Shown: positions 513 through 45,836, numbered from the stretch's first letter. The stretch: 64,000 nucleotides of DNA from Candidatus Nomurabacteria bacterium (GCA_016699085.1 CP064958.1:540619-604618); one strand, 5' to 3'. Program-made: numbers and translations. The notes: generated from the letters alone by a model not told the origin.

Positions 513-553
513 TATTTTTAAGGATTTTATTAATATTTAATCTTTAAAACATT

Positions 554-1140: not shown

Positions 1141-1178
1141 AAAAAAAAAGACCCGCCCAAGAGCAGGTCTTTTTAAAA
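1141..1178. terminator. bidirectional intrinsic terminator (A-run, GC hairpin agacc..ggtct, T-run)
   Basis: aaaaaaaaagacccgcccaagagcaggtctttttaaaag between convergent genes 554..964 and 1185..1457. Confidence 0.7.
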
Positions 1179-1184
1179 GTCGAT

Positions 1185-1457
1185 TTATAATTTTTCGGCA
1201 ACAACCTTACCTTTCTCGGTCAGATAATAGTACCCTTTGTTGTCTAATTCTCCGAATGAGAAACCAATGAGTTTCATATCCCAGAGGTTGCCACATGGTG
1301 TTCCTGTAAATATTTTTTCTCGTTCATCGAGAGTAATATCTACATCGCCTTTCTTTTTAGTTTCTTTAATAATTTTTTCTTCAGCACTTGAGATTTGAAT
1401 TGATAGTGTACTTTTTATTTGTTTGTGGAGGTTTTTTTCAATTATGATTGTTTTCAT
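1185..1457 (-). CDS. hypothetical protein (90 aa) driven by family-B promoter/leader
   Basis: ATG ORF; conserved leader hairpin ends about 8 nt upstream of the start. Confidence 0.5.
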   Translation of the reverse strand: MKTIIIEKNLHKQIKSTLSIQISSAEEKIIKETKKKGDVDITLDEREKIFTGTPCGNLWDMKLIGFSFGELDNKGYYYLTEKGKVVAEKL

Positions 1458-1571
1458 TTTTTACTTGATTGGTTTCCATAAACCCCAATAAAGGATCTCT
1501 GAAAACCAATCAAATACATGTGAAAGGGCAGTGCTGTTCATATAATACTTATAATATATGTATTTGTCAAA
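1458..1571 (-). promoter_or_regulatory. family-B module: sigma70-like promoter (TTGACA-N17-TATTAT, minus sense) plus conserved 5'-leader hairpin TTGATTGGTTTCC...GGAAACCAATCAA
   Basis: rc of tgtcaa at 1565-1570 and rc of ataata at 1542-1547; inverted repeat ttgattggtttcc / gaaaaccaatcaa at 1467-1513; same module at 4247-4369 and 10506-10627. Confidence 0.65.
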
Positions 1572-1575
1572 CCTT

Positions 1576-1605
1576 GCTCCGAACATGGGTTGACTAAGGA
1601 AACCG
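1576..1605 (+). repeat. family-A-like palindromic element (gctccgaac...ggaaaccg)
   Basis: Shares the CTCCGAAC core with repeats listed below. Confidence 0.5.
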
Positions 1606-1607
1606 AA

Positions 1608-2057
1608 TTAATACACAGTCGGAAACTCAGCAACTGATTCATATTGATACGATGGCGAGGTGTAGTCGGGGAGTGCCTCCTCAAAAGTTTTACGCAGTAC
1701 TAGGTAGGAGTTTTCACCTTTAGTTATCTTAAACCATTGTCCCAACCCAGCTGCATAGCACTGAATCTTGCTGGAACCCGCTACGATATCCGTATCTTCC
1801 TCTGAAGGAAGGATATCATTACAAGAACCATCGACCTCGTCAATTTCTTTTGAAAGCACCTTTCCATTGGCATTCATTGCATCCAAGAAAATTTTAGTAC
1901 CTGGTATACCATCAAGATTTAAAGCGCCTTCTTGATATCGCCATGTAAAAGATACAAGTGGAGCTTGTTTTATAGTAGTAGATTTATATCCCCCTATGCC
2001 TACATAGGTAGCTATAGCTAATATCACAATCACGAGAACTATTGCAATTCTTTTCAT
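1608..2057 (-). CDS. membrane-anchored hypothetical protein
   Basis: ORF with N-terminal TM; the track start at 2081 is TTG, so the ATG at 2057 is preferred. Confidence 0.45.
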   Translation of the reverse strand: MKRIAIVLVIVILAIATYVGIGGYKSTTIKQAPLVSFTWRYQEGALNLDGIPGTKIFLDAMNANGKVLSKEIDEVDGSCNDILPSEEDTDIVAGSSKIQCYAAGLGQWFKITKGENSYLVLRKTFEEALPDYTSPSYQYESVAEFPTVY

Positions 2058-2130
2058 AAAAAAAGTATAGCACAGGTTCAAATTCTTAGTTTTGGCAACA
2101 AAAAAACTTACAGACTAAGAGTACTTAATT

Positions 2131-2178
2131 GTCCGAACCTACTTGTTTATCCTTCAACAGGGGAGGATACTCGGAAAG
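2131..2178 (+). repeat. family-A palindromic element (gtccgaacc...ctcggaaag)
   Basis: Terminal inverted cores ccgaac / ctcgg around a variable centre, upstream of the arsR promoter. Confidence 0.55.
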
Positions 2179-2207
2179 TTTCCAAAACAAATTTAAAATA
2201 AAAGTCA

Positions 2208-2235
2208 TTGACTTTATAAAATACTTTGCTATAAT
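2208..2235 (+). promoter_or_regulatory. sigma70-like promoter TTGACT-N16-TATAAT for the ArsR-family gene
   Basis: ttgactttataaaatactttgctataat located about 25 nt upstream of ATG 2260. Confidence 0.6.
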
Positions 2236-2259
2236 AATTTCAAACAAAAACTAAGCGTT

Positions 2260-2577
2260 ATGGCAGAAAAAAACGGTTTGACCAATGTAAAATTGGTCGC
2301 ATCTATTTTACGTGCTCTCAATCATAAGTTGAGACAGAGCATGATGGAATTAATGGAGAATAAGCCGGGAATCACCGTCACAGAAATATACGCCAAGTTG
2401 CACTTGGAACAGTCTGTGGCATCACAACATCTTGCTATCCTGCGACAGGCGGGAATTGTAAAGATCGAACGAGACAAGAAAATGATTCGCTATTCTTTAA
2501 ACAAGGAGCGAATCAAAGAAATCGATTTGCTGCTTCAAAAAATTGTTGCAGGGCATAAGTCGATAACCAAAGCCTGA
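2260..2577 (+). CDS. ArsR/SmtB-family HTH transcriptional regulator
   Basis: Classic ArsR helix-turn-helix: TVTEIYAKLHLEQSVASQHLAILRQAGIV. Confidence 0.85.
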   Translation: MAEKNGLTNVKLVASILRALNHKLRQSMMELMENKPGITVTEIYAKLHLEQSVASQHLAILRQAGIVKIERDKKMIRYSLNKERIKEIDLLLQKIVAGHKSITKA

Positions 2578-2582
2578 GTCAA

Positions 2583-2612
2583 AAAAGCATCCCAAAATAC
2601 CGGGGTGCTTCT
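2583..2612 (+). terminator. intrinsic terminator after the ArsR gene
   Basis: gcatcccaaaataccggggtgc hairpin followed by ttcttctttt. Confidence 0.5.
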
Positions 2613-2620
2613 TCTTTTGT

Positions 2621-2676
2621 CAGACCTTCACCACATTCACAATGTTCACGTGCTCCGAATGTGAATGTTCGGAGAG
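2621..2676 (+). repeat. family-A element with a short palindromic core (ctccgaa tgtgaatg ttcggag)
   Basis: ccttcaccacattcacaatgttcac module followed by a perfect 7-bp inverted repeat. Confidence 0.65.
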
Positions 2677-2719
2677 TAATAATTGAAACTACTAGTTAAA
2701 CAATAACAGTAAATTACCT

Positions 2720-3169
2720 TTATTTCTCAGCTAACTGCTTTAATGTTTCTAGGGCTTTTGGCCACATACCGTTAAACATATCCTTGTACTCATCTTTCAC
2801 GTTAATGTCTATAATCAATTCAGTTCCACCATCTTTTTCCTTGAACGTGTAGTTTTCAAAATACAACTCATCAGGTCCATAGCTATTTTCCTTGCCCTGC
2901 ATGATTTCACCCGAGTATTTGATAGAAATAAATTCACCTGGTCTGGATTCTTGTATTTTTCCGATCATCCCTGAAATAGTGCCATTTTTTTCCTTGCCTA
3001 AAAACTTAATATCACTTCCTTCATCCCAACCACCTTCAACATATGATTGTGCTGTGGGGTCAGGATTAAAAACTGATGTCCATTGCTTGTATGTTTCTTC
3101 GCCTAGCATTGTGTCCCAAACTTTTTGCTGAGGAGCATTGATATCAATTGTATAGTGTAAATGTTCCAT
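2720..3169 (-). CDS. SRPBCC superfamily protein (AHSA1/Aha1-like START fold)
   Basis: About 150 aa with polyketide-cyclase/Aha1-like pattern (HYTIDINAPQQKVWD...); ArsR-SRPBCC pairs are a known association; track start 3214 is GTG and ATG 3169 is preferred. Confidence 0.65.
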   Translation of the reverse strand: MEHLHYTIDINAPQQKVWDTMLGEETYKQWTSVFNPDPTAQSYVEGGWDEGSDIKFLGKEKNGTISGMIGKIQESRPGEFISIKYSGEIMQGKENSYGPDELYFENYTFKEKDGGTELIIDINVKDEYKDMFNGMWPKALETLKQLAEK

Positions 3170-3237
3170 ATGTGTATTATTGATTATTCTAATAAAGTTA
3201 TTATAACAAAACACCTGCTTTTAACAGATGTGTCTTG

Positions 3238-3296
3238 TTGGCTCCGAACCTGCTCGCCCGACCTCTGGTGGGGAGGATAATCAGAAGAGTTTGGCA
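3238..3296 (+). repeat. family-A element (ggctccgaacc-tgctcgcccgacctctggtgggg-...)
   Basis: Same core and inner cccgacctctggyggg module as copies at 6371, 7471 and 10630. Confidence 0.65.
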
Positions 3297-3304
3297 AGGA
3301 AGTA

Positions 3305-3330
3305 AAAAAACCTGCTGGTGCAGGTTTTAA
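3305..3330 (-). terminator. intrinsic terminator for gene 3350..3805
   Basis: aaaaaaacctgctggtgcaggtttt. Confidence 0.6.
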
Positions 3331-3349
3331 GCTAATCTTTAGCTAATGG

Positions 3350-3805
3350 TTAGTGATAGAGTACTACTTGTGGATCTGCTTTCTCAATTGCGCTGAAGAT
3401 TATTGGAAGATGAGCTTTGTTCCAAAGTTTCTCTTCCAAAGAGAGTGCAATAGGGCCACTGTTCTGTATTTTGTTTAAGCAGCTCTGAAGTGTACTGATA
3501 TCTTCTATTTCATTCTCTGCATGCAATTTGTAACAGACAATGCCATGGTAAGTATGGTCACTCTTCTTTATTTCAATGATCTCACCAAGTTTTCTCTGTC
3601 TAAAATAATTAAACTCTGGAACTATTTTAGTTTTAACAAGTAATCCTGCAAAACTACTCACTCCTTTTTTTGCGTAAAATTGGCTGCTTAAATCGTTGTA
3701 TCCTGAGGGTGGGTACATATAGATACCATCTGTATTCAGGAGCACTGCAATGTCATGGCACCTAGTTGTGAGAATTGATTCGAGGGATACGTGTTTGAGT
3801 AGCAT
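3350..3805 (-). CDS. hypothetical protein (151 aa)
   Basis: ATG ORF with its own promoter; no recognisable motif. Confidence 0.45.
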   Translation of the reverse strand: MLLKHVSLESILTTRCHDIAVLLNTDGIYMYPPSGYNDLSSQFYAKKGVSSFAGLLVKTKIVPEFNYFRQRKLGEIIEIKKSDHTYHGIVCYKLHAENEIEDISTLQSCLNKIQNSGPIALSLEEKLWNKAHLPIIFSAIEKADPQVVLYH

Positions 3806-3849
3806 AGCTTTATTTATTGATTAGGAATGTGAAAAAACTATCTGGATAT

Positions 3850-3878
3850 ATACTACAATATCATTTTATTTAGTCAAC
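3850..3878 (-). promoter_or_regulatory. promoter TTGACT-N17-TAGTAT (minus sense) for gene 3350..3805
   Basis: rc of agtcaa at 3873-3878 and rc of atacta at 3850-3855. Confidence 0.55.
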
Positions 3879-3881
3879 TCA

Positions 3882-3913
3882 TGCTCCAAGCTTGGGAGGA
3901 TATTCGGAAGGGG
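3882..3913 (+). repeat. family-A element (gctccaagcttgggaggatattcggaagggg)
   Basis: Abuts the -35 box of the promoter above. Confidence 0.55.
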
Positions 3914-3967
3914 ATGGTAAAAATAAAAAGCCAACTAAATGAGTTGGCTTCTCTAATCATTTCCTTC

Positions 3968-4246
3968 TCAACAAAAAAGAAATTCCTTACACTTGTCTCT
4001 AACGGCTCTACAATGACTCATTTGTTTTAAGGTAGTGATAATTTCTAAATTTGGCTTATCTTTTTTGAGCAAAATGTTGACTGCGAAAAGAGCTTCTTCA
4101 TCTGAATATTCATTATTTTTAGCCTTAGCTATCTTATATAGTTCATCATCGGACATTTTTTTGATTTGCCTTTTCTTCTGTTCATTTTGTACTTCAGTGG
4201 CAAGATTTTTTAGCTCTTCATCAGTCATGGTTTTTGTTTCTTTCAT
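3968..4246 (-). CDS. hypothetical Lys/Glu-rich protein (92 aa), family-B leader
   Basis: Preferred start ATG at 4246 (MKETK...), because the upstream 66 nt are the conserved leader hairpin; the track ORF extends to 4312. Confidence 0.4.
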   Translation of the reverse strand: MKETKTMTDEELKNLATEVQNEQKKRQIKKMSDDELYKIAKAKNNEYSDEEALFAVNILLKKDKPNLEIITTLKQMSHCRAVRDKCKEFLFC

Positions 4247-4369
4247 TTTATTACGTATTGAATTGGTTCCCACAAAAGCCAGAAGCTTCTCTGGAAACCA
4301 ATCAAATACCATGTGAAAGGGCAGTGCTGTTCTCTACATTACTACGATATTGTTTTTTGTCAAACCTTC
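4247..4369 (-). promoter_or_regulatory. family-B promoter (TTGACA-N17-TAATGT) plus leader hairpin
   Basis: tttgtcaaa at 4355-4363; leader ttggttcc...ggaaaccaatcaa at 4263-4305. Confidence 0.55.
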
Positions 4370-4392
4370 CTTCGGACATGTCTCTTCCTGCC

Positions 4393-4505
4393 AGGTTCAC
4401 AACATACACAACGTTCACTTGACTCCGAACTTGGGACGATGCTCCCGATTTATTAAATTGTACTCAATTTGTTTAAATCGCAGTCCTGTTAAGGGTTCGG
4501 AAAGA
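4393..4505 (+). repeat. family-A long variant (ccttcacaacatacacaacgttcac + gactccgaac...gatttattaaattgtactcaatttgtttaaatcgcag...gggttcggaaag)
   Basis: Near-identical 110-nt copy at 8300-8411 and a mosaic copy at 6371-6497. Confidence 0.75.
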
Positions 4506-4544
4506 GTTTGATAGAAAATTAAAAAGACCAACACTCGGTTGGTC

Positions 4545-4868
4545 TTAAATCAGACTCGGATCATTCTTGAACAAAAAAGGTTTTCTCTTTTCAATAAATT
4601 GGATAATCAGTAAGCATAAGACTCCCATAAGTGCGTTATACCAAATACAATCTACTGAATAAGCGTTGCTTTTTATTTTGAAAAGCCAAACAAAAATTGC
4701 TGAAATAGAGGTGCCAAAGAAAAACTGACTAAGGAGCTCTAATCCCTTAACACGCTTTACTAATAGAGAGACAAGTATTGTTATGACAAATAACAATACT
4801 GTGAAATAAAACCAATGTTCATGACTGTCGTTGCGAAAATGGAAAAGTTCACAGAAGAAATTTTGCAC
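4545..4868 (-). CDS. small integral membrane protein (hypothetical)
   Basis: Two or three TM segments; GTG start. Confidence 0.4.
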   Translation of the reverse strand: MQNFFCELFHFRNDSHEHWFYFTVLLFVITILVSLLVKRVKGLELLSQFFFGTSISAIFVWLFKIKSNAYSVDCIWYNALMGVLCLLIIQFIEKRKPFLFKNDPSLI

Positions 4869-4936
4869 AGCTATTAAGTTTTATAGTGTTAAAGAACTGA
4901 TATTATAATAGCATAAAATATTACAATAGTCAACTA

Positions 4937-4963
4937 TGTTCCGAACGTGGATGTTCGGAAGGG
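4937..4963 (+). repeat. family-A short element (gttccgaacgtggatgttcggaaggg)
   Basis: Perfect inverted cores ttccgaac / gttcggaa next to the -35 box (rc TTGACT) of gene 4545..4868. Confidence 0.6.
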
Positions 4964-4986
4964 TCTATCAAGAAAAGTTAATCACT

Positions 4987-5793
4987 CTATAAAAAGTATT
5001 TATAGGTAAGGAGGATGATTCCGATAAGAGAAAGAGATACAGAAAGGACTTTTGCACTTTTATCTGGTAGCTTATTAAGTATTTTTTTTCCATAGTGTTG
5101 AGCTAATAGTAGGAAGGGGATAACGGTAACTACAAGGATAAGGTCTCTTGCATTAAGATGGTTATGAAATAGAATAATAATTCCAGTTACAAAAAACACT
5201 GAAAGTCCAAGAGTTGAGCCAATTGCTCGCACAGAGACTTCAGAAACTACTGTTCGCAAGTAATTGTTTCTAATATCTGCCCCAGGTAAACCTCCCCCTT
5301 GTAGAAAACCAGAAAATAGTGCAACCATACTAAGCTTTGCTCTGTGCACAGACTCAATTGGTGTTTGGTCTGTTGAAACGTGTCGAAGTGTCTTGTAGAT
5401 AAAATATATTGATGCAATTACAACGACTGCAGCTAAAAGTTTTGCACTCATATATGAAATAAGGGTACCACCTAAGATTGCTCCAATGATTGAGAAGGGC
5501 ATAAGAGCTTTTACAATATCCAGATTCCTCTTTTCAGTAAATGCTTCTTTTCTAAATAAATAGACTCGATGTATACCACTAAAGAAAAAAATAAATGCAC
5601 CAATCCCTATTGCTCTTTGGGGGTCTGTAAAGAACGCAGTTACAGGATTGATAATCATTGATCCAGAAGTTTGAACAACGATGTTTATAAATGTTGTAGC
5701 AATAAGCCAAATATATACAAAAAGATACTCAGAAAGAAAATCTGTTAGTATAGTCATCGGATCACTGTAACATAGTTTTCTGAGAGTGACCAT
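4987..5793 (-). CDS. TauE/SafE (DUF81) family membrane permease
   Basis: Polytopic membrane protein with the GxGGGxxxxP motif (FLQGGGLPGA). Confidence 0.6.
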   Translation of the reverse strand: MVTLRKLCYSDPMTILTDFLSEYLFVYIWLIATTFINIVVQTSGSMIINPVTAFFTDPQRAIGIGAFIFFFSGIHRVYLFRKEAFTEKRNLDIVKALMPFSIIGAILGGTLISYMSAKLLAAVVVIASIYFIYKTLRHVSTDQTPIESVHRAKLSMVALFSGFLQGGGLPGADIRNNYLRTVVSEVSVRAIGSTLGLSVFFVTGIIILFHNHLNARDLILVVTVIPFLLLAQHYGKKILNKLPDKSAKVLSVSLSLIGIILLTYKYFL

Positions 5794-5803
5794 GCAGCTC
5801 TAA

Positions 5804-5858
5804 AACCTTCACAACATACACAACGTTCACTTGCTCCGAACGTGGATGCTCGGAAGAG
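5804..5858 (+). repeat. family-A element (ccttcacaacatacacaacgttcac + gctccgaacgtggatgctcggaagag)
   Basis: Conserved module immediately upstream of ATG 5793. Confidence 0.7.
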
Positions 5859-5909
5859 TATTAGTCAAATAAAATAATAGATTTCGTATGATTATTAAAT
5901 GATTCAAAA

Positions 5910-5945
5910 ACAAAAAAGATACCTGCTCCTACAGATATCTTTTAC
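5910..5945 (-). terminator. intrinsic terminator for gene 5964..6296
   Basis: minus sense aaagatatctgtaggagcaggtatcttttttg. Confidence 0.6.
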
Positions 5946-5963
5946 ATACAAAGTCAGAAGATT

Positions 5964-6296
5964 TTAAACTCCAAGTAATTTTTTAGACTTCAAAATTCCT
6001 TCAGGGTCAAAGGGGGTGTTTAGTTGTCGAACAATCCTTGCTCTTGAAACTTCAAGCTCCACTTCCTTCTCAACTGAATGATTAAGGATTTCACTTTTTA
6101 AATCTGGCACATCGTTCTGCATTTCTATTACTGAAGTAAGTAATTCAAGAAATGTATCCTTGTCGATTGAATGATTTCCAAACTTCCCACAAATAAACCT
6201 AATCGCCCCTAATCGACTTTCGTAAAAATTAGATTGAATATTGTTGATAATTATAGCAACCAACAAGCCATTTTCCGAAATTAAAACGTTTTTCAT
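5964..6296 (-). CDS. hypothetical protein (110 aa)
   Basis: ATG ORF with promoter TTGACT-N16-TAGTAT (rc of 6330-6366). Confidence 0.4.
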   Translation of the reverse strand: MKNVLISENGLLVAIIINNIQSNFYESRLGAIRFICGKFGNHSIDKDTFLELLTSVIEMQNDVPDLKSEILNHSVEKEVELEVSRARIVRQLNTPFDPEGILKSKKLLGV

Positions 6297-6370
6297 ATAT
6301 ATGGGTTTATGTGAAAGTTTGACTTAACAATTTAAACCAATACTACGATATTATTCTATTTAGTCAATGG

Positions 6371-6497
6371 TGCTCCGAACTTGCCTGCCCGACCTCTGGC
6401 GGGGGATGATGCTCCCGATTTATTAGATTGTACTCAATTTGTTTAAATCGCAGTTGATTCAACAGGATCATACTAGGTACACGGAAGGGTTCGGAAA
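6371..6497 (+). repeat. family-A mosaic element (v2 head gctccgaacttgcctgcccgacctctggcggggg joined to v1 tail gatgctcccgatttatta...gggttcggaaaa)
   Basis: Chimeric structure shows the repeat units are modular. Confidence 0.75.
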
Positions 6498-6505
6498 ATT
6501 TTAAA

Positions 6506-7042
6506 TTAACTATTCGCTAGAAACCAAGTTATCTCTTCACTGACACTGGCAAACAAATCATCAAGTTCTTTACTTACACCTCTACACGCATTCGCAACTT
6601 TTTTTACACCTTCAAATCTTTCCAGCCTTTCCTCCTTACTCATTAGTGTATTCTTGGCATCTAATTCACCTCCAGAAATTTGATCCGCAATCTTTATCCG
6701 TCGTACCGACTCACTTTCTTTAGAAATTTTTTCTGCCTGTATTGCTTTTCTTTCACCCACAGGAAGATTTTTCCATTCAGGAGAATCAGTTAAACCATTC
6801 ACCATGGTTGCAATATGTTTACCAAATTCTCTCTCGATATCTTCTATCGTTACACCAGTATCTTCCACAGTGTCATGCAGCCAGGCTGCAGCAATCTCTT
6901 CTTCACTGCCTCCTGATAACTGTACTAGACTAGCAACTCTTTGAAGATGAAAATAATATGGTGTTTTGAATGCATCACTTTCGGTGTGATTTTTGTGAGC
7001 TTCTTTGGCAAACTGCTTTGCTTTTTCGATAAGTGTAGTCAT
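6506..7042 (-). CDS. stand-alone HD-domain (p)ppGpp hydrolase (small alarmone hydrolase, Mesh1/SpoT-hydrolase-like)
   Basis: HD motifs YYFHLQRVA...AAWLHDTVEDT...IEREFG are paralogous to the N-terminal hydrolase domain of the RelA/SpoT gene at 49063..50583. Confidence 0.7.
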   Translation of the reverse strand: MTTLIEKAKQFAKEAHKNHTESDAFKTPYYFHLQRVASLVQLSGGSEEEIAAAWLHDTVEDTGVTIEDIEREFGKHIATMVNGLTDSPEWKNLPVGERKAIQAEKISKESESVRRIKIADQISGGELDAKNTLMSKEERLERFEGVKKVANACRGVSKELDDLFASVSEEITWFLANS

Positions 7043-7059
7043 TAGTAGATTATAGAAAG

Positions 7060-7431
7060 TTAATTTCGATAGATCTCAATTCGTATTCCATCTGGGTCAT
7101 CAAGCCAGATGTATTCATTACCAAATTTGCCTAGTTTTATTTCACTGTGTTCTATATCAACTTCAGAAAGAAGTTTTTGAAATTGTTTTAGTTCATCTAT
7201 TGTTTTTACACCAAAGCCAATATGGTTCATGCCAATACTATCCTTATCGTACTCTCTATCCGAAACATCTTTTGGACTTAGCTTGAAAAACAATCTGGTC
7301 TCTCCAACCTTATACACGACCATGTGTTCATCATGAATAATCGGTTTAGGCAGGAATTTTGAGTAAAACTCTGCAGTCCTACTTATATCTCTAACTATTA
7401 AAGACATGTGATCAATAAATGCTGGTTGCAT
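7060..7431 (-). CDS. VOC (glyoxalase/bleomycin-resistance/dioxygenase) family protein
   Basis: IDHMSLIVRDI...NHIGFGV...IWLDDPDGIRIEI pattern. Confidence 0.75.
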   Translation of the reverse strand: MQPAFIDHMSLIVRDISRTAEFYSKFLPKPIIHDEHMVVYKVGETRLFFKLSPKDVSDREYDKDSIGMNHIGFGVKTIDELKQFQKLLSEVDIEHSEIKLGKFGNEYIWLDDPDGIRIEIYRN

Positions 7432-7470
7432 GGTTGGATTATAGCAGATTGAGAAAGCTTATCTCCTGCA

Positions 7471-7548
7471 AACCTTCACAACATACACAACGTTCACAGG
7501 CTGCGAACTTGCCTGCCCGTCCTCTGGCGGGGGATGATGTTCGGAAGA
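7471..7548 (+). repeat. family-A element (ccttcacaacatacacaacgttcac + gctgcgaacttgcctgcccgtcctctggcgggggatgatgttcggaagaa)
   Basis: Lies in the divergent promoter region between 7060..7431(-) and 7642..8244(+). Confidence 0.7.
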
Positions 7549-7641
7549 ATTTATTGATATAGTTATATTGACAATTTAATTTAAAAATGTTACTATTTCA
7601 CTAGTAAATAAGTTCATTAAATCACATAAACTAATAACATA

Positions 7642-8244
7642 ATGAAAAAAGCTATTCAACCTCAAGGGTTTGGTGAAGGACTAACTGTCCCGATGCCTAA
7701 AATCTGGGTATCAGATGATGACATGATTGACCAAAAGGTTGGAATTCACATGTGTGAATTCCATGAAGATTGTGATCCTGCTCCAGGATGGAAGAGAAAA
7801 GATGTAAGTATGACTGGGAATTGTAACTGTCACCTTAAAGGAACAACAGTGACAATAACTGGTCTGAAAGCAACCAGTCGTGCCACCTTTTATCGTTCCA
7901 CCTGTTACACGATTGCTGAAGATAAAAACCTTATTCATGAATCTGAATTTTCATCTGAAAAAGAAGACTCAGCAGGGGTTTCGGGCTATGTACTGGAAAA
8001 TGAAAAGGGTCAGTTACTTACTGCTGCGTATACATATACCTCAGCTATTAAACAGCCTCTGTTTGGATATGTATTCAATACTGGTCTTCTTAAGATCATG
8101 TTAAAAAACGGACTTGCAGTAGGTAATCCTATTAAGGCCTGGCCTGTAAAATGTAAAAACAATGAGGGTAGCAAAAGATCCTTAAATGGATCATCCCTCA
8201 CATGGCAGGAATTAGCAAATGTTATTTTAGTGAAAAAGAAATAA
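7642..8244 (+). CDS. hypothetical Cys/His-containing protein (200 aa)
   Basis: ATG ORF preceded by TTGACA-N17-TACTAT. Confidence 0.45.
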   Translation: MKKAIQPQGFGEGLTVPMPKIWVSDDDMIDQKVGIHMCEFHEDCDPAPGWKRKDVSMTGNCNCHLKGTTVTITGLKATSRATFYRSTCYTIAEDKNLIHESEFSSEKEDSAGVSGYVLENEKGQLLTAAYTYTSAIKQPLFGYVFNTGLLKIMLKNGLAVGNPIKAWPVKCKNNEGSKRSLNGSSLTWQELANVILVKKK

Positions 8245-8299
8245 TAAAGAAAAGATTGTTTAAGCCAAACCGAAAGGGGAGGCTTTTTCTTTTCCCCCA

Positions 8300-8411
8300 C
8301 ACCTTCACAACATACACAACGTTCACTTGACTCCGAACTTGGGACGATGCTCCCGATTTATTAAATTGTACTCAATTTGTTTAAATCGCAGTCCTGTTAA
8401 GGGTTCGGAAA
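8300..8411 (+). repeat. family-A long variant, near-identical to 4393-4505
   Basis: More than 100 nt identical; preceded by the ggctttttcttttcccc element. Confidence 0.8.
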
Positions 8412-8465
8412 TCCTTGTTTGACACGGTATTGAGTGTATAGTAGGTTTAGTAAAATTATACTGAC

Positions 8466-9137
8466 ATGAAATACATCGATTTAACTCATACACTTTCATC
8501 ACCTATCCCAAGCTGGGATGGAGATTGTTGCTTTACTGCTCCTATTGTTTACGATTATAAGGATTCAAAAGAACCCAATCTATTCCGTATCCATAGAATC
8601 GAGGCAAAAGCTGGTTGTGGTACGCATATGGACGCTCCTGCACACTGTATTCCTGGTGGGAAGACTATCGATACCCTCGATCTTGATACTCTCTTAGTTG
8701 ATTGTATTGTTATCGACATCTCTGAATCTGCACATGAAAAGTATGTTGCTGGTTTAGATTGTATTGAAACTTTTGAGAGGGAACACGGCAAAGTGCCAGT
8801 AGGAAGCTTCGTGATTTTCTATACTGGTTGGGACAAGTATTGGGATGATAAAGAAAAATATCGCAACAATCTAAACTTCCCAAGTATTAGTGAAGATGTT
8901 GCCAAGTTTCTTATTGAGAGAAATGTTTCTGGTGTTGGTATTGATACCTTGTCACCAGATGCAGTCGGTAATGATTTTCCAGTACACCGCGTAATGCTTG
9001 GGGCAGGAAAGTACATTGTTGAAAATGTTGCAAATGCAGGGATGTTGCCTGCAACTGGTGCAAAAATTTCTGTCATGCCAATAAAGATAAAAGATGGCAC
9101 AGAAGCACCAATACGACTTGTCGCTCAGATTCAGTAA
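8466..9137 (+). CDS. cyclase-family protein / kynurenine (aryl)formamidase-like
   Basis: HxGTHxDxPxH motif (GCGTHMDAPAHC) of PF04199. Confidence 0.75.
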   Translation: MKYIDLTHTLSSPIPSWDGDCCFTAPIVYDYKDSKEPNLFRIHRIEAKAGCGTHMDAPAHCIPGGKTIDTLDLDTLLVDCIVIDISESAHEKYVAGLDCIETFEREHGKVPVGSFVIFYTGWDKYWDDKEKYRNNLNFPSISEDVAKFLIERNVSGVGIDTLSPDAVGNDFPVHRVMLGAGKYIVENVANAGMLPATGAKISVMPIKIKDGTEAPIRLVAQIQ

Positions 9138-9184
9138 GGCTTCTTTTAAAAGATCTCTCAAATGGGATCTTTTTCTTTTCCCCA

Positions 9185-9242
9185 GACCTTCACCACATGC
9201 ACAACATTCACTAGCTCCGAACTTGGGATGTTTGGAGGGTGG
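9185..9242 (+). repeat. family-A element (ccttcaccacatgcacaacattcac + gctccgaacttgggatgtttggagggtgg)
   Basis: Diverged copy. Confidence 0.6.
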
Positions 9243-9298
9243 AGCATAATATTGACAATAGTGCATATATAGTATATAATATATAAAAATTTAAGAGT

Positions 9299-9604
9299 AT
9301 GAAAAAGCACTATTTCTTTGTCACAGCTGATTTCAAATTTAGGAAAAAATATGTTAACACACAATATGATTCCCATCCAACTGATGTGTGGAGGTTTGAT
9401 CAGAAAGAGACCTACATGATTGAGCAAAAAAAAGATGAAACGGATGAAATTTTCTTCCCAGCTCTAAAAAAGTATATTACCGATGCTTTGGATGCATATG
9501 CGGATTCGTGGCTTGCTCAAAGTAATTCAAAAGTACCGCAAGATAGTGGGTGGCAATGGGCAAAAGACAGTGTTAGCTTGATAACCTTTTCAAAGTTAAA
9601 CTAA
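9299..9604 (+). CDS. hypothetical protein (101 aa)
   Basis: ATG ORF. Confidence 0.4.
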   Translation: MKKHYFFVTADFKFRKKYVNTQYDSHPTDVWRFDQKETYMIEQKKDETDEIFFPALKKYITDALDAYADSWLAQSNSKVPQDSGWQWAKDSVSLITFSKLN

Positions 9605-9648
9605 CATCTGAGTGTTGTGAGAAGTCTTGCATTATAGGCAAGGCTTTT

Positions 9649-9679
9649 TCTTTTCCCCAGACCTTCACAACGTTCACTT
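9649..9679 (+). repeat. family-A head (ccccagaccttcacaacgttcacttg) truncated by the 176-bp repeat
   Basis: Element interrupted exactly where ggctcgggaggtaggg begins. Confidence 0.6.
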
Positions 9680-9855
9680 GGCTCGGGAGGTAGGGTGATC
9701 TTTCGTTACACGAACAGTAGACCTTTTTGAAATGTTCAGAATATATTCTTCACATTTAGCAAAAAGCTTTTCGATCCCTACACGAAAGCCAAGCAGTTGG
9801 CTTTCTCTCCCTCGCCACAAAAACTAAAAACCCCCGAAGGGGTCTAAAGTTTTTG
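9680..9855 (+). repeat. 176-bp direct repeat copy 1, starting with a 16-nt copy of the tRNA-Asn 3' end (ggctcgggaggtaggg)
   Basis: Copy 2 at 11657-11832 lies exactly 1977 bp away; contains hairpins gaaagccaagcagttggctttc and ccccgaagggg and an inverted tRNA T-arm fragment ttcgatccctac. Confidence 0.85.
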
Positions 9856-9886
9856 GGCTCCGAACTTGGGATGATGTTCGAATGAA
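9856..9886 (+). repeat. family-A core (gggctccgaacttgggatgatgttcgaatg) directly after repeat copy 1
   Basis: Sits in the position that the tRNA body occupies after copy 2. Confidence 0.55.
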
Positions 9887-9950
9887 TATAATGAGGAAAT
9901 AAAAAAGCCCTTTATATCACTAAATGAGAAAGGGCTTTAATAAGTGAAAA

Positions 9951-10505
9951 TCAAAGTTTATTTATTTCGTTTGCAATCTCTAAAAGTTTAGGATCGTTAG
10001 TTTTACAAAGAAAAAATAATTGCTCATAATTTTCTGGTGTAGTAGGATTCTGAGCTTTTAATTTTTCAAGGATTTTAGTTGTTAAATTAAACCACTCGGC
10101 CTCAAGTCTTTTTTCAAGAAGAGAGGCTTTTGCACCCCATCCCATTTTTGAAGAGTCTTCATAGACGTTTTTTATCAGTCTAACTTGATCTAGATCATCT
10201 TCTTTTTTGATATTTGCAAGAAGTTTATTAAACGCAATATACATTTGAAGACAGATGAGATCTTTTATTTCCTGAGAAGCTACACTAACCTTTTCGCCAC
10301 TATAACCAAATGCATTTACACCATAATAAAGACTTATGTAATGTTTTAGTTCTCTGCATTTTGCTAGCACAGCTTTAGTTTCTTCAAGATCCCATTCCCA
10401 AATGTGGATACTATTAGCTTTGCTAACTAGATTTTCAATTGGAGAATCAAGAATGATTTCCATCTTTGTTGCACCTTGTCCCTGTGCTTTTTTAAAGAGT
10501 TGCAT
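9951..10505 (-). CDS. hypothetical protein (184 aa), family-B leader
   Basis: Preferred start ATG 10505 (MQLFKK...) placed after the conserved leader; the track start 10568 is TTG. Confidence 0.45.
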   Translation of the reverse strand: MQLFKKAQGQGATKMEIILDSPIENLVSKANSIHIWEWDLEETKAVLAKCRELKHYISLYYGVNAFGYSGEKVSVASQEIKDLICLQMYIAFNKLLANIKKEDDLDQVRLIKNVYEDSSKMGWGAKASLLEKRLEAEWFNLTTKILEKLKAQNPTTPENYEQLFFLCKTNDPKLLEIANEINKL

Positions 10506-10627
10506 AATTTTGTGTTTATTTGATTGGTTTCCACAAAAGCCATTTATGCTCCTCTGAAAACCAATCAAATACTATGTGAAAGGGCCGTACTGCTTATACA
10601 ATACTGTAATATCTTAATTTGTCAAAT
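10506..10627 (-). promoter_or_regulatory. family-B promoter (rc tttgtcaaa) plus leader hairpin tttgattggtttcc...gaaaaccaatcaa
   Basis: Third copy of the module. Confidence 0.6.
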
Positions 10628-10629
10628 TT

Positions 10630-10680
10630 TGCTCCGAACTTGCTTGCCCGACCTCTGGCGGGGGATGATGTTCGGAAGAG
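10630..10680 (+). repeat. family-A element (gctccgaacttgcttgcccgacctctggcgggggatgatgttcggaagag)
   Basis: Same variant as at 6371 and 7495. Confidence 0.7.
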
Positions 10681-10705
10681 TTTAAAAAAATGTTAATGTA
10701 TACTC

Positions 10706-11599
10706 ATGAACTCTAACCTCGCCCCAGAAATATTTCGCAAACGCCTTATTATTGAAGGGAAATACACGGTTGAAATAAAAGAGGAGCAATTTGTCACTGA
10801 TTTCCTCTCTGATCTCTCTAGAGAGCTTGGAATGACAATTATTGCTGGCCCATTTATTTCGAGTGCCACAGGTAAGTCGGTACCCCTTCATGATGGTTAT
10901 GAAGGTTCACTTGTGTGGGCAGAATCAGGAGCAAACACATATATTTGGACACGTTCGAAATTCTGCACCGTTGATATTTATTCATGCAAGGAATTTGATT
11001 CAGAAAAAGCAATCAGTTTTATAAAAGAACGATTTGGCATTATAGAATTTTCATATTTTGAATTACCAGACCCTATGGCTTCAAAGCAAGATTCTCGAAT
11101 CGTATTACGACAAAGTGAAAATAAGGGGAACGGTGTTTTTGCCAATAAGGCAATACCTCAAGGAACAGTCGTTTCTTATGTGGATGGACAGATTCACTAC
11201 GCTCAAAAAGAATCTGAAGTATATGTGCATGCTTCAAATCACGCAGTTCCTTTTCATAAATATTTTTATAGAAATGGCTTCAACACAGACGCAGTCAAAT
11301 TAAATCACTCGTGTGAACCAAATTGCTATGTAAAAGATTTATTTTTCGTGACAACCATGCGAGATATACAAGCTGGGGAAGAACTTACATACTGTTATGG
11401 GCTTTTCTGTAACTCTGATTGGGAAAATCCCGAAGGTGTGTGTCATTGTGGTTCTAAAGAATGTCTTGGAAAAATTCTGCCATGGAGAGAGCTCCCTCAA
11501 GACTTTAAGATTAAATACTTTGACTACACCGCTGATTGGATTTTGTTTGATGAAATAAAGAATAAAGGACTTCTTGAAGAACTAAAGAAAAGCATTTAG
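10706..11599 (+). CDS. fusion protein: N-terminal pyruvoyl-type S-adenosylmethionine decarboxylase-like domain (SpeH/AdoMetDC fold) plus C-terminal SET-domain lysine methyltransferase with post-SET Cys cluster
   Basis: SET: GNGVFA, NHSCEPNC, GEELTYCYG, CHCGSKEC. N-terminal: LVWAESGANTYIWTRSKFCTVDIYSCKEFD aligns to the AdoMetDC VVIAESHLTIHTWPE...AVDVFTCGD pattern including the ES self-cleavage site. Confidence 0.75.
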   Translation: MNSNLAPEIFRKRLIIEGKYTVEIKEEQFVTDFLSDLSRELGMTIIAGPFISSATGKSVPLHDGYEGSLVWAESGANTYIWTRSKFCTVDIYSCKEFDSEKAISFIKERFGIIEFSYFELPDPMASKQDSRIVLRQSENKGNGVFANKAIPQGTVVSYVDGQIHYAQKESEVYVHASNHAVPFHKYFYRNGFNTDAVKLNHSCEPNCYVKDLFFVTTMRDIQAGEELTYCYGLFCNSDWENPEGVCHCGSKECLGKILPWRELPQDFKIKYFDYTADWILFDEIKNKGLLEELKKSI

Positions 11600-11656
11600 G
11601 TTAGAATTTCTAAAAAGGTAACAAAAAATCACCTTGTTTTGAAAGGTGATTTTTCT

Positions 11657-11832
11657 GGCTCGGGAGGTAGGGTGATCTTTCGTTACACGAACAGTAGACC
11701 TTTTTGAAATGTTCAGAATATATTCTTCACATTTAGCAAAAAGCTTTTCGATCCCTACACGAAAGCCAAGCAGTTGGCTTTCTCTCCCTCGCCACAAAAA
11801 CTAAAAACCCCCGAAGGGGTCTAAAGTTTTTG
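11657..11832 (+). repeat. 176-bp direct repeat copy 2, abutting tRNA-Asn
   Basis: Identical to 9680-9855 as far as I can read. Confidence 0.85.
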
Positions 11833-11834
11833 GG

Positions 11835-11906
11835 CTCGGGAGGTAGGGATCGAACCTACGACCAACCGCTTAACAGGCGGTCGCTCTACCGCTGAGCTAC
11901 TCCCGA
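11835..11906 (-). tRNA. tRNA-Asn (GTT)
   Basis: Cloverleaf read by hand: acceptor TCGGGAG/CTCCCGA, anticodon loop CTGTTAA, T-loop TTCGATC. Confidence 0.85.
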
Positions 11907-12065
11907 ATCTATTTAAAGAAGGCTGTTTCGGCATCCTCTGCCTTCTCTACTCTTTAACCACTGAATAATTTTCTAACATTCTCATATAAGAATGTGCAAT
12001 TATCCTAGCAAAATTAGGCATAAAAAGCAAAAACAGGCATATATGCCTGTTTACTGTTAATTTCC

Positions 12066-12530
12066 TCATTGATAGTAGTCCTGCCCATTTATCCTGTAGC
12101 CATATTGTGTTACAACCTGACCAGTACTTAAAGTCACCGATCTTGAAATTGGTACTGCTTCTACGGCGTTCTCAGTCTTCTTAGTTTGTTGAGAAATATC
12201 TGATATGACTAGGTAGACTATTCCCACCGTCTGTAGTACATCATTTACAGTTCTCATTATTCGAATACCTTGCCCTCTGTCTGAATAGAAATAGCCAGTA
12301 GGGGTCATGTACCTCCTGTCGTTTCCATAGATCGATTGATTAGGAGTCCAATTCGGGTACTGATTTCTGTGTACTGTTTGTCCACTATTGGTATTCCAAC
12401 AGTTTCCATACATTTGTGAATTGGCAGGGTAATTCAATGGAGTATAGTTTGGAGGCGTCATGTTGTACTGTGCATTGACAGCATGTGCCATAAAGCTCAG
12501 TAAGGCTGTAATTACAATGAACGTTTTCAT
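12066..12530 (-). CDS. secreted N/Q/Y-rich hypothetical protein with signal peptide
   Basis: MKTFIVITALLSFMAHAVNA signal; low-complexity composition. Confidence 0.5.
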   Translation of the reverse strand: MKTFIVITALLSFMAHAVNAQYNMTPPNYTPLNYPANSQMYGNCWNTNSGQTVHRNQYPNWTPNQSIYGNDRRYMTPTGYFYSDRGQGIRIMRTVNDVLQTVGIVYLVISDISQQTKKTENAVEAVPISRSVTLSTGQVVTQYGYRINGQDYYQ

Positions 12531-12660
12531 AGTAGATGATTTTCTTCATTGAACCACTTTTGTGCATATACTGCAATGGGTGGAGGTTAATAATCCAATT
12601 CCTCAACATTCGTATATTTGCTATACTTATAGTAAGCATTATCACTAACTATTTACGCTT

Positions 12661-13047
12661 ATGCTTACAGTCAATATAAAAGCAACGAATATCGAACTAA
12701 CAGATGCCATCAAAGACTACGCTGAAAGAAAATTAAATAGTCTCGATAAATTCATGCATTCAGAGGCTGAAAATATGCATGTAGAAATCGGTAAAATTAG
12801 CAATCATCATAAACAAGGGGAAGTATACAAAGCAGAAGTGAACTTAAGTATTGGCGGCAAGAAATTTTATGCTATAGCTGAGAAAGAGGATCTCTATGCA
12901 GCGATCGATGAAGTGAGAGAAGACATTGTTCGACAGCTGACTGAGAACAAAGAGCGAAGTGTGACGTTGTTCCGCCGAGGAGCAAGAAGTGTCAAGAAAA
13001 TGATGAAGGGCATTTCAAAGAGAAATCCATTTACGTCGAAGTATTAA
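12661..13047 (+). CDS. hpf: ribosome hibernation-promoting factor (HPF/RaiA/YfiA family)
   Basis: N-terminal NIELTDAIKDYAERKL pattern and length typical of HPF. Confidence 0.8.
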   Translation: MLTVNIKATNIELTDAIKDYAERKLNSLDKFMHSEAENMHVEIGKISNHHKQGEVYKAEVNLSIGGKKFYAIAEKEDLYAAIDEVREDIVRQLTENKERSVTLFRRGARSVKKMMKGISKRNPFTSKY

Positions 13048-13077
13048 CTAGTAAATAGAAAATAGTTAATAGAAAGC

Positions 13078-13533
13078 ATGGAGACTCAAATTGAATTTAG
13101 AAAGGCAACGATTGCTGATGTGGAACGCTATATAGAGATAGAAAAAACAGCAATTGGTAAGAAAATATATTTAATCACCACTGATCCCGAGGAAGTGCGA
13201 GATGTAATAGAAACAAATGAAATTTTCTTTATATATGTAGATAATCTACTTGCTGGACGTGTTGCATACGAAATAAAAAATAAAAATGAAGTGTATCTGA
13301 GTGATTTAATTATACTACCTGAATTTCAAGGCCTGGGCATTGCTCGGAAAGCAGCTCTATTTCAATTGGATCAAACAAAAGAATATAACTACGTTTGGTT
13401 TGTGACACATCCGCATAATAATAAAATTCTCACTCTCTATTTATCTCTTGGATTCACTATCGAGTCTTGGAAAGATAATTATTTTGGTGACGGGGAACCA
13501 AGGTTGGTACTTGCTCGTACGAAATCTTCATAA
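13078..13533 (+). CDS. GNAT-family N-acetyltransferase
   Basis: Acetyl-CoA motif region LIILPEFQGLGIARKA. Confidence 0.6.
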   Translation: METQIEFRKATIADVERYIEIEKTAIGKKIYLITTDPEEVRDVIETNEIFFIYVDNLLAGRVAYEIKNKNEVYLSDLIILPEFQGLGIARKAALFQLDQTKEYNYVWFVTHPHNNKILTLYLSLGFTIESWKDNYFGDGEPRLVLARTKSS

Positions 13534-14360
13534 CGAACTTCCTTTTTGCCTTCGGGAATTACTTTCTGTATTTTAAACATACCATCTTCGTACATCGCAT
13601 CAGTGATTTTTACGCGCTTATTATTTTTATCCATAAAATAAATTCCTGGCCAGCCATAATACGCACGATATTTTCTCCACAGGACACTTGGGAGCTCAAC
13701 TCCCAAGTCTACGAGGCCATCTTCCTTTTTGATTTTCTTAGTGAAGGTTGCTTTGGTGTGATCCTGTTCTGTCAGAATAATTTTTCCGAGAATGTATTCT
13801 GGAATTATTTTACTTAACATTTCACCACCATGACAGAAAAGTTCATTACCAAGATCATTTGCCCGCTCATTACCAGTTAGTATTCGTTCGTCTTGGAACA
13901 TTATTGGTCCATGGTCGACTTTTGCATCAAGTTTAATAATACTTACTCCTGTTTTTATATCACCAGCAAGTATTGGTCCAACGACTGGCGCAGTGCCACG
14001 GTAGAGTGGCAAGAGCGATGGATGAATGTTGAGTGTGCCAAATGTGGGCATAGTGAGTAATTTCTCTGGCAAAATTTTGCCATAGGCAGCGACGATGCCG
14101 AGCTCAAAGTTCAAAGTTGAAAGTTCGGCAAAAAATGCATCATCAATTTTTGCAGGTTCGAGGACTGGTATATGGTGAGCTAACCCCCAAACTTTTGTAG
14201 GTGATGGTGAGAGAACTTGGTGTCTGCCGACTGGTTTGTCAGGCGAGGTAACAATGGCGGTCGGTAGATATCCATGTTTGGATAATCCTTCAAGTGCACT
14301 CACAGCCAAGTCCGGTGTGCCAAAAAATACGAATGATGGTTTTTGATTCTGGCTTGCCAT
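13479..14360 (-). CDS. fmt: methionyl-tRNA formyltransferase
   Basis: FVFFGTPDLAV...LNIHPSLLPLYRGTAPV. Confidence 0.9.
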   Translation of the reverse strand: MASQNQKPSFVFFGTPDLAVSALEGLSKHGYLPTAIVTSPDKPVGRHQVLSPSPTKVWGLAHHIPVLEPAKIDDAFFAELSTLNFELGIVAAYGKILPEKLLTMPTFGTLNIHPSLLPLYRGTAPVVGPILAGDIKTGVSIIKLDAKVDHGPIMFQDERILTGNERANDLGNELFCHGGEMLSKIIPEYILGKIILTEQDHTKATFTKKIKKEDGLVDLGVELPSVLWRKYRAYYGWPGIYFMDKNNKRVKITDAMYEDGMFKIQKVIPEGKKEVRYEDFVRASTNLGSPSPK

Positions 14361-45783: not shown

Positions 45784-45836
45784 TAGTAGGCAAAATAGCA
45801 CAAATAAGCTTACTTTGCTATAGTATTCAAATATTA

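Follow-up and report, generated by a model that had tools for sequence, protein, structure and literature searches.

A probable tRNA-anchored accretion island of single-gene cassettes behind tRNA-Asn in a Candidatus Nomurabacteria genome

How did two identical copies of a short sequence, each starting with the 3' end of a tRNA gene, come to lie on the two sides of a pair of genes next to that same tRNA? The question is raised by a stretch of 64,000 nucleotides (nt) from Candidatus Nomurabacteria bacterium (GCA_016699085.1, CP064958.1:540619-604618; hereinafter, the window), in which a repeat that we denote X brackets a two-gene module and, with its second copy, adjoins the gene for tRNA-Asn(GTT). 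The initial annotation of this DNA took the arrangement for a site-specific insertion at tRNA-Asn of a single element with an expanded or duplicated attachment (att) region. As shown below, the insertion point stands whereas the single element with an expanded att does not. In our judgement, the locus is probably a tRNA-anchored accretion island that consists of non-autonomous units mobilised in trans.

Repeat search of the window yields a single direct-repeat family, with X copy 1 at 9679-9860 and X copy 2 at 11656-11837 (both on the minus strand; start-to-start spacing of 1977), and string comparison confirms that the two are identical over all 182 nt (100% identity), rather than loosely similar. 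Within the 182-nt block, a 176-nt unit can be delimited between two copies of GGCTC (9680-9684 and 9856-9860 in copy 1). Both copies start, as originally noticed, with the final 16 nt of tRNA-Asn, GGCTCGGGAGGTAGGG (at 9680 and 11657), which is the reverse complement of the 3' strand of the T-stem, the 3' strand of the acceptor stem, the discriminator and 2 nt more; this 16-mer occurs three times in the 64 kb (9680, 11657 and 11833) against an expectation of 0.11, and three occurrences are reached in none of 100 shuffles. Copy 2 indeed runs straight into the anchor of the locus, tRNA-Asn (11831-11907, also placed at 11835-11906, minus strand; ARAGORN, and Rfam with 71.9 bits), the two overlapping via the common GGCTC at 11833-11837. 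Thus, the flanks are arranged as in an island, with the intact tRNA-Asn on one side and, on the other, a partial copy of its 3' end that has been displaced.

Read along the tRNA strand, X consists of an intrinsic terminator (AGACCCCTTCGGGGGTTT followed by a T-run; 9828-9845 and 11805-11822, minus strand), an inverted copy of the tRNA end that is split by a hairpin, an AT-rich inner module and, finally, the last 16-21 nt of tRNA-Asn copied in direct orientation. The inverted copy includes not only the T-arm already seen in the initial annotation (T-loop/T-stem copy TTCGATCCCTAC at 9770-9781) but also the acceptor strand (CTCCCTCGCC at 9807-9816), and what splits it in two is a perfect 9-bp hairpin, GAAAGCCAA-CTGC-TTGGCTTTC on the tRNA strand (hp22; 9784-9805 and 11761-11782, minus strand). 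Together with a palindrome at 9730-9757, the hairpins in the repeat number three rather than the two first reported. Around the terminator loop (the 9773-9860 region), a long inverted repeat is formed by the arms of the terminator together with the tRNA end and its inverted copy. X is, then, a small, non-coding, cargo-less unit, which imitates the end of the adjacent tRNA-Asn.

So is the bracketed DNA inserted material, and is X a part of one element? Natural alleles, compared by means of exact-protein look-ups and Logan unitigs, bear on both questions. In L169 (SRR32414321), the gene order is ORF101 (equivalent to 9299-9604), the left half of a junction that we call J3, a single X and tRNA-Asn; the module is absent. 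The window differs from this allele by exactly one block of 1977 bp, which comprises a cassette for a 184-aa protein, a SET cassette and one X; given that L169 has one X and no module, this block represents a natural insertion/deletion polymorphism, and the bracketed DNA is inserted material, as had been proposed. Other relatives also differ in the arrangement of X and cassettes: L001 (SRR32414319) contains another cassette, a junction, the SET cassette, X and a junction of a different type, with no tRNA, whereas in L089, a metagenome contig, X is followed by approximately 2 kb of other DNA and only then by tRNA-Asn. Sequence identity of X to its homologues ranges from 99% (L169) and 97% (L001) to about 73% (L049 and L089). 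L003 has the flanking 154-aa gene in common with the window and entirely different content at the site. A 27-nt junction of the window recurs exactly, 3' of tRNA-Asn and in equal relative orientation, in L030, which also has the adjacent fmt-def-hisS-lepB gene order of the window, and in L024; exact-protein look-ups with the cyclase and the 200-aa cassette proteins of the locus returned nothing but contigs of one same sample.

The boundaries of X are precise. Copy 1 separates the left half of J3, CCCAGACCTTCACAACGTTCACTTGGCTC (9656-9684, plus strand), from the right half, GGCTCCGAACTTGGGATGATGTTCGAATG (9856-9884, plus strand), with which the 184-aa cassette starts; the Logan unitig L002 starts with this X-end|CGAAC junction, too. 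The flanks of copy 1 read ...ACCTTCACAACGTTCACTTGGCTC on the left and GGCTCCGAACTTGGGATGATGTTCG... on the right, and when 9656-9684 is joined to 9856-9884, an intact junction is rebuilt that resembles those at 8296-8412 and 9181-9240 (the empty, X-free J3 is defined here as CACTTGGCTC|CGAAC). Since the two flanks jointly form a junction that recurs intact elsewhere, X lies inside a junction, between two GGCTC copies. The right boundary of X is found in three contexts in the window and L001, with a common ...GGGCTC followed by divergence (|CGAAC, |GGGAGG and |CTATCG), and the left boundary in two contexts that have TGGCTC in common and diverge immediately outside it; the X of L089 shows the same pattern with a core of its own, GCTCC, and the left boundary of the SET cassette likewise is located at or beside GCTCC. 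One or the other of these pentamers is found at every unit boundary, the cassette termini being GTTCGGAAG... and ...GCTCCGAAC. On the tRNA strand, GGCTC reads GAGCC, in which the end of the acceptor strand is followed by the discriminator and CC. All unit boundaries fall on this one short core, and tRNA-Asn is supported as the point of site-specific insertion. Conversely, with three right-hand and two left-hand contexts, one of them away from any tRNA (L001 and L089 supply the other contexts), X is a discrete unit and not the expanded or duplicated att of a single element.

The module itself does encode, as annotated, a hypothetical protein and an AdoMet_dc/SET fusion, but it is not one two-gene element. 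The first gene (9951-10505, minus strand; also called in L002/L171) encodes the 184-aa protein, with no match to a Pfam family, and is preceded by a promoter (10598-10625) and by a leader hairpin that is conserved (10517-10571). The second (10706-11599, plus strand) encodes a 297-aa protein in which Pfam recognises AdoMet_dc and SET, and is followed by a bidirectional terminator at 11623-11655. The two are separated by a junction, J4 (10629-10680, plus strand), of a long form with an internal 19-nt hairpin, and in L001 the identical SET cassette follows a short-form junction and has a different left neighbour, so that these are two separate cassettes. The AdoMet_dc/SET fusion is widespread in Parcubacteria, where homologues with 69-80% identity (L179, L180) are ordinary chromosomal genes, adjoining gyrB in one genome and located near gdh and alaS in another; hence, the SET gene in the cassette is a captured version of a common gene.

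Neither is the module the whole of what has accumulated at this tRNA. It is the tRNA-proximal, growing end of a cassette array of about 10.8 kb (1024-11837) that stretches from a DUF305 gene (554-964) to tRNA-Asn and contains about 15 single-gene units; the module, accordingly, is not one element at a tRNA, and it includes no integrase. We arrive at this description of 1024-11837 from the observation that recurrent junctions separate self-expressed single genes of unrelated function: by Pfam, the cassettes encode ArsR, SRPBCC/AHSA1, TauE, HD_4, glyoxalase, cyclase and SET proteins along with several unknowns, the genes are on both strands, and most of the cassettes have a TTGACA/TATAAT promoter and a terminator of their own (a perfect TTGACA-17-TATAAT at 9252-9280, another promoter at 7568-7596). 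In each junction, the arms GCTCCGAAC and GTTCGGAAG, in this order, are set 6 to >100 nt apart, and junctions occur approximately 14 times between 1577 and 10678, in a single orientation. The arms, CTCCGAAC and GTTCGGAAG, cluster in this same interval (1577-10678), with 4 matches to the junction motif against 0.01 expected, and beyond the first 12 kb of the window there are no paired arms, just isolated one-mismatch matches to single arms. The left arm together with its spacer, GGCTCCGAACTTGGGATGA, resembles a degenerate, partial end of tRNA-Asn (15/21 match to the L181 tRNA), and in many junctions the stretch preceding GGCTC resembles the 3' end of a recombinase gene. Judging by these resemblances, the most fitting view of a junction seems to be that one unit ends there and another starts, with a remnant of the tRNA in between.

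Some of the junctions have additional structure. A segment of about 112 nt is identical in two of them (4389-4500 and 8301-8412), with a longer variant in a third (6411-6497); between the arms of these junctions, there is an insert of about 55 nt, CTCCCGATTTATTAAATTG...GTTAAGG, with GCTC in front, that resembles a nested mini-unit. A second junction type, GCTCC..TGGACAAGTTCAGAAC..CTAATTGGA..AAATTAAAAG, is found in four genomes, at the far end of the array in the window (1024-1082) and at approximately 11133-11190 in L001, 6720-6770 in L024 and 3441-3500 in L089.

How might such an island grow? We envisage that it grows and is shuffled by site-specific crossover in the terminal core, at the extreme 3' end of tRNA-Asn, and that it would be composed of units of two kinds, namely one-gene cargo cassettes with their own promoter and terminator, and the cargo-less X, which would supply a terminator for the tRNA along with copies of the tRNA end. 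The doubling of X could then be explained if the 1977-bp block (184-aa cassette, SET cassette and X) was joined between an older X and the tRNA via crossover at GGCTC; alternatively, a copy of X might have entered J3, or else, with the direction reversed, the block might have been lost in the relative. Once X was doubled, homologous exchange could also have added or removed the block. Given that the island encodes no enzyme, its units would be non-autonomous, and the enzyme acting in trans most likely would be a large serine recombinase of a type that we found in relatives.

The clue to such an enzyme came from L089, in which the open reading frame (ORF) that abuts tRNA-Asn has 81 homologues, all of them short and many with a recombinase zinc-ribbon domain; these ORFs look like C-terminal remnants of large serine recombinases of Patescibacteria. 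An intact version is encoded in L181, a 509-aa large serine recombinase (Pfam: Resolvase, 4.7e-22; Recombinase, 4.3e-14; Zn_ribbon_recom, 1.1e-12) whose reading frame extends about 40 nt into tRNA-Asn. The L181 element is flanked by a 148-nt inverted repeat with 98% identity (108-255 / 1733-1880), the proximal arm of which includes the final 8 nt of the tRNA, and the design recurs at tRNA-Gln in L048, where the inverted repeat has 156 nt and 99% identity (11645-11800 / 13202-13357). These elements are compact (1.7-1.8 kb), with a single recombinase gene between the inverted repeats, and we found no description of them in the literature; recombinase remnants are present in L089, L182 and L003. 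The termini of the L181 element, TTCGGAGCC... and ...TTTGGCTCCGGA, resemble the termini of the cassettes, GTTCGGAAG... and ...TTGGCTCCGAAC. The far arm of the elements of this type carries a short ORF that duplicates the recombinase C-terminus.

Several observations speak against an island moved by such an enzyme. No recombinase of any kind is detectable in the 64-kb window, either by Pfam comparison of 38 ORFs or by tblastn, for which an approximate E. coli XerD sequence and the L181 serine recombinase served as queries; the XerD search gave no match, the best E-value being 2.5. The likeness between the junction arms and the L181 termini spans 7-12 nt. The spacing of the junction arms, from 6 to >100 nt, is unlike a single compact serine-recombinase site; large serine recombinases act on compact sites with a central dinucleotide. 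With such variable spacing, a junction makes sense only if the ends of two elements meet in it and a remnant of the tRNA is included. The crossover can be placed no more finely than in or beside GGCTC. The difference between L169 and the window, taken alone, is no proof of site-specificity, given that, once X is present twice, plain homologous recombination over 176 bp would suffice to produce it. Finally, the covariance model R1 of the other tRNA-trailing units, described next, gives no match to X (E-values up to 1, filters off).

X has numerous counterparts, and it is at this point that an altogether different role for it has to be considered. The exact 22-mer hp22 is present in at least 120 metagenome contigs. 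Among the matches listed, it is nearly always located just 3' of a tRNA or transfer-messenger RNA (tmRNA) gene (mostly 14-77 nt from the tRNA 3' end, about 110 nt at most), the tRNAs are of nearly every specificity, two matches are beside tmRNA, and in about three quarters the tRNA is convergent to the plus-strand copy of hp22. The flanks of hp22 copy the T-loop/T-stem and acceptor strand of the particular adjoining tRNA, and in most of these loci a near-exact direct copy of the final 18 nt of the tRNA lies 70-140 nt further outward; at the hp22 loci, a direct 3'-end copy is found downstream of 58 of the 158 tRNAs and upstream of none of the 158. The hairpin itself belongs to a family with more than 30 stem variants in which the apical AA-CTGC-TT is kept. 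Sister units that lack hp22 also occur within the window: one trails tRNA-Trp (45930-46037, plus strand), with a direct tRNA 3'-end copy matching at 17 of 18 positions and an R1 score of 78.6 bits; two in tandem trail tRNA-Leu(CAA) (47705-47797 and 47536-47649, spanning 47536-47797, minus strand), the second preceded by a hairpin variant, GAGCAAACTGCTTTGCTC (47653-47670); one trails tRNA-Gln (61421-61513, minus strand); and a partial one is found at tRNA-Lys. R1 was built from 15 sister units and describes a three-way junction whose closing helix includes the T-loop copy; X has position, architecture and hp22 in common with such units but a different, AT-rich inner module. A sensitive search of 1-14000 against Rfam 15 recovered the tRNA alone, no Rfam 15 family matches the sister units in 45700-48100 at E-values up to 10, and in the literature we found no description of the hairpin sequence, the unit family or a comparable system.

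Could X and its sisters be, in the first place, genes for structured RNAs that trail tRNAs, for example, a mimic of a tRNA minihelix with a role in processing or as a decoy, such that the duplication is incidental? This reading concerns the role of X and is compatible with the island model. In the sister family, covariation is strong: 91.9% of the cells are paired, against 60.6% after shuffling and 39-45% after sliding, double changes are seen in 19 of the 21 pairs, and the stems covary around a constant apical AA-CUGC-UU. For 34 of 40 units, folding favours the tRNA strand (p = 2e-6), and R1 finds 82 matches in 672 kb of hp22-related loci and no match in about 25 unrelated bacterial and 13 viral loci. 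Yet the tRNA and X have a good intrinsic terminator between them and no consistent promoter was seen, several units (in L050 and a small subgroup) have an exact direct copy but an inverted copy that is unmatched to the adjoining tRNA, and there are decaying tandem arrays of units behind several tRNAs (L110, L152) as well as an X away from any tRNA (L001); furthermore, paired terminal repeats of a mobile element could also produce the apparent covariation. The terminator ahead of the units and the mismatched L050 units thus count against a simple RNA gene, while the strand-asymmetric covariation counts for a folded single strand, and we regard a primarily RNA-coding function of these units as unlikely. 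In its strictest form, with X as a tRNA minihelix RNA in which stem pairing is obligatory, the idea is weakened by the unmatched inverted copies of L050 and the small subgroup.

In L050 (reverse strand), two tandem units follow tRNA-Val, with exact direct copies and inverted copies that match another tRNA, which suggests movement of units between tRNA species; one of the two has a hairpin variant, GGAAACTGAA-GCAG-TTCAGTTTCC.

A dedicated recombinase would be superfluous if X and the junction repeats were passive stretches of homology, with the block gained or lost through a Campbell-type single crossover, unequal sister exchange between X copies or natural transformation. The 100% identity of the X copies over 182 nt, the difference of exactly one repeat period between L169 and the window, and the presence in the window of a gene for the transformation protein DprA (53588-54439) are all compatible with this explanation. 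What it cannot create are the hybrid junctions between the left half of J3 and the start of X and between the end of X and the right half of J3, in which GGCTC alone is common, and it leaves unexplained the occurrence of X beside other junction types in L001 and L089, as well as the placement of all boundaries on one core of 4-6 nt. Homologous recombination as the sole agent, therefore, is in our view quite improbable.

Poorer still are the prospects of an integron-like platform, in which folded, single-stranded, attC-like sites would recombine with the tRNA-Asn end in the place of attI, under the action of a tyrosine recombinase encoded elsewhere. The resemblance is tangible, in that the junctions form imperfect inverted repeats whose ends, ..CCGAAC and GTTCGG.., are conserved around a variable centre of 6 to >100 nt, and that they stand in one orientation between single-gene cassettes; the strand asymmetry noted above and a G-T/G-U pair that is maintained in 25 sequences also fit, as does the location of the units behind a terminator, a position that speaks against an abundant RNA. 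As in integrons, the cassettes are small and mostly single-gene, the array has one fixed growth end and there are duplicated cassettes. However, no IntI-like or XerD-like gene was found in the window or at a distance of up to 5 kb from some 120 related loci, in which an all-against-all BLAST comparison of ORFs yielded housekeeping families alone as recurrent neighbours, and the recombinases at such sites in relatives are all serine recombinases. Integron cassettes are mostly promoterless and co-oriented, and are served by a common promoter, whereas those in the window have promoters of their own and both orientations, and the fixed end is a tRNA. The attC sites are imperfect palindromes of 55-140 nt, with R''/L''-L'/R' boxes (RYYYAAC...GTTRRRY). 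The arms TCCGAAC...GTTCGGA have the AAC/GTT ends and the variable centre, but the arms are much shorter than those of known attC sites, many of the junctions are about 22-27 nt, and there are no definable L boxes or extrahelical bases. We consider this possibility very unlikely.

That the second copy and the order X-module-X originate from mis-joining of the assembly at the repeat is hardly credible: although the 182-nt repeat exceeds common assembly k-mers and Logan unitigs break at its ends, independent unitigs of SRR11674009 reproduce the window junctions of all three types (the left half of J3 joined to X in L170; X joined to the right half of J3, and the module to X, in L002; and L004, from the same sample, which ends inside tRNA-Asn), and a single-copy X is assembled straight through into the tRNA in L169. 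More precisely, L004 terminates at ...CCCTACCTCCCGA, one base before the tRNA-Asn discriminator, and the contigs L005 and L007 of two further samples likewise stop within the tRNA 3' end by ARAGORN coordinates; such contig ends suggest a graph branch and, with it, population heterogeneity at the attachment core. Bridge RNA, omega RNA, casposon, retron, group I intron and tmRNA were dropped as candidates on account of the lack of an associated protein or wrong repeat lengths or topology, and a paper on tRNA introns of Patescibacteria covers anticodon-loop introns only (PMC13011429).

How does the accretion island that we favour compare with known systems? Tyrosine recombinase-based or large serine recombinase-based islands of the Islander/tycheposon kind are located beside a tRNA gene, have partial-tRNA flanks, push older units outward as newer ones arrive and contain remnants and miscellaneous adaptive cargo, all of which applies to the locus described here. 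Tycheposons of Prochlorococcus are among the tRNA-anchored islands built by repeated integration (bioRxiv 10.1101/2020.12.28.424599). Unlike in these islands, the units of the window contain one gene or none (176 bp), without integrase or replication genes; the partial tRNA here is the last 6-21 nt, each unit also has an inverted copy of the tRNA end, and one architecture trails many tRNA species. An integrase within the element, which is encoded in the relatives L181, L048 and L003, is found neither in the array nor in the window.

In the composite islands of the staphylococcal cassette chromosome (SCC), the Ccr large serine recombinases act at the 3' end of a conserved gene, where cassettes are stacked in tandem, including recombinase-less ones that are moved in trans; short direct repeats lie between the cassettes, whose ends carry inverted repeats. 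The window cassettes, too, are bounded by short target repeats (GGCTC / GCTCC) with terminal inverted repeats. The differences are that the target is a tRNA rather than rlmH, that the cassettes have one gene, that the island has no ccr-like gene and that the recombinase of the relatives has just the large-serine-recombinase domain architecture in common with Ccr. The L181 and L048 elements, for their part, resemble Tn4451 (TnpX) and Tn5397 (TndX) in that terminal inverted repeats enclose a single gene, for a large serine recombinase, while short non-coding units that fold into long hairpins recall those derivatives of insertion sequences that are similar to miniature inverted-repeat transposable elements. 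The repeats of L181 and L048, however, are about 150 bp long, the proximal one starting inside the 3' end of the tRNA, the reading frame of the recombinase stops within the tRNA gene, and the targets are tRNA ends rather than a dinucleotide. X itself is flanked by direct copies of 16-25 nt, long for the target-site duplication of a miniature element, and has no demonstrated link to a transposase.

To our knowledge, Patescibacteria have tiny genomes with few recognised mobile elements, and how they acquire accessory genes is poorly understood. Against this background, the locus is a concrete, strain-variable platform on which one-gene cassettes are stacked behind tRNA-Asn, with a natural allele that differs by one block, and it is tied to very abundant, structured, tRNA-trailing units and to a family of serine recombinases that overlap tRNA ends. 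Apparently, this way of collecting genes behind tRNA genes is widespread in Patescibacteria and undescribed, and, with substantial probability, the tRNA-trailing units form an undescribed system together with the tRNA-overlapping recombinases. If the link between recombinases and units is real, it would define a new cassette-capture system with compact recombinases that have predictable tRNA-end targets, and would account for a class of intergenic structures that these genomes commonly contain without annotation; if it fails, the units still constitute a large structured family without a matching Rfam 15 model. A broader proposition, which we advance tentatively and to which we assign somewhat less than an even chance, is that Patescibacteria possess a general, undescribed gene-capture system with tRNA and tmRNA 3' ends as landing sites. 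The AA-CUGC-UU units, each with a direct and an inverted copy of the end of its own tRNA, would then be portable attachment sites, as folded DNA or RNA, for the large serine recombinases that overlap tRNA ends, and the single-gene cassettes would be shuffled between strains in an integron-like manner, by a different class of enzyme and with a tRNA as the fixed site.

Several minor features of these loci deserve to be recorded. The leader hairpin of the 184-aa cassette has counterparts: several minus-strand cassettes share a conserved 5' leader in the form of a long hairpin, TTGATTGGTTTCC...GGAAACCAATCAA, just before the start codon (10517-10600, 4255-4345 and 1458-1530 in the window; about 9830-9890 in L001 and 640-700 in L169). 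This leader matches no Rfam family and may serve cassette genes in common as an element of translational control.

Next to a tmRNA gene in L155 (11482-11720), there is a tandem duplication of 237 nt that comprises an hp22 unit and 56 nt of the tmRNA 3' end; given that its endpoints are away from the RNA end, the mechanism of this duplication differs from that in the window. The exact hp22 is present also in GC-rich contigs, some of them phage-like (L045, L075, L095, L115, L123 and the viral L165-L168), in a conserved context, ...GTTCGTCGTTCG-hairpin-CGTCCGCT..., with no tRNA nearby, and hp22 may therefore be a mobile or convergent motif beyond Patescibacteria. The viral contigs yielded four hp22 matches, all in GC-rich phage contigs of unrelated context, and three matches to the junction pattern; six matches to the sister-unit motif were dismissed as chance ones in GC-rich phages. 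Finally, L003 contains a chimeric tRNA-Asn (1051-1125) that is native over 25 nt at the 5' end and foreign over the rest, with an unpaired acceptor stem, where ARAGORN calls no tRNA; behind it lie a large serine recombinase gene with a frameshift (1133-2755) and then a copper-resistance operon.

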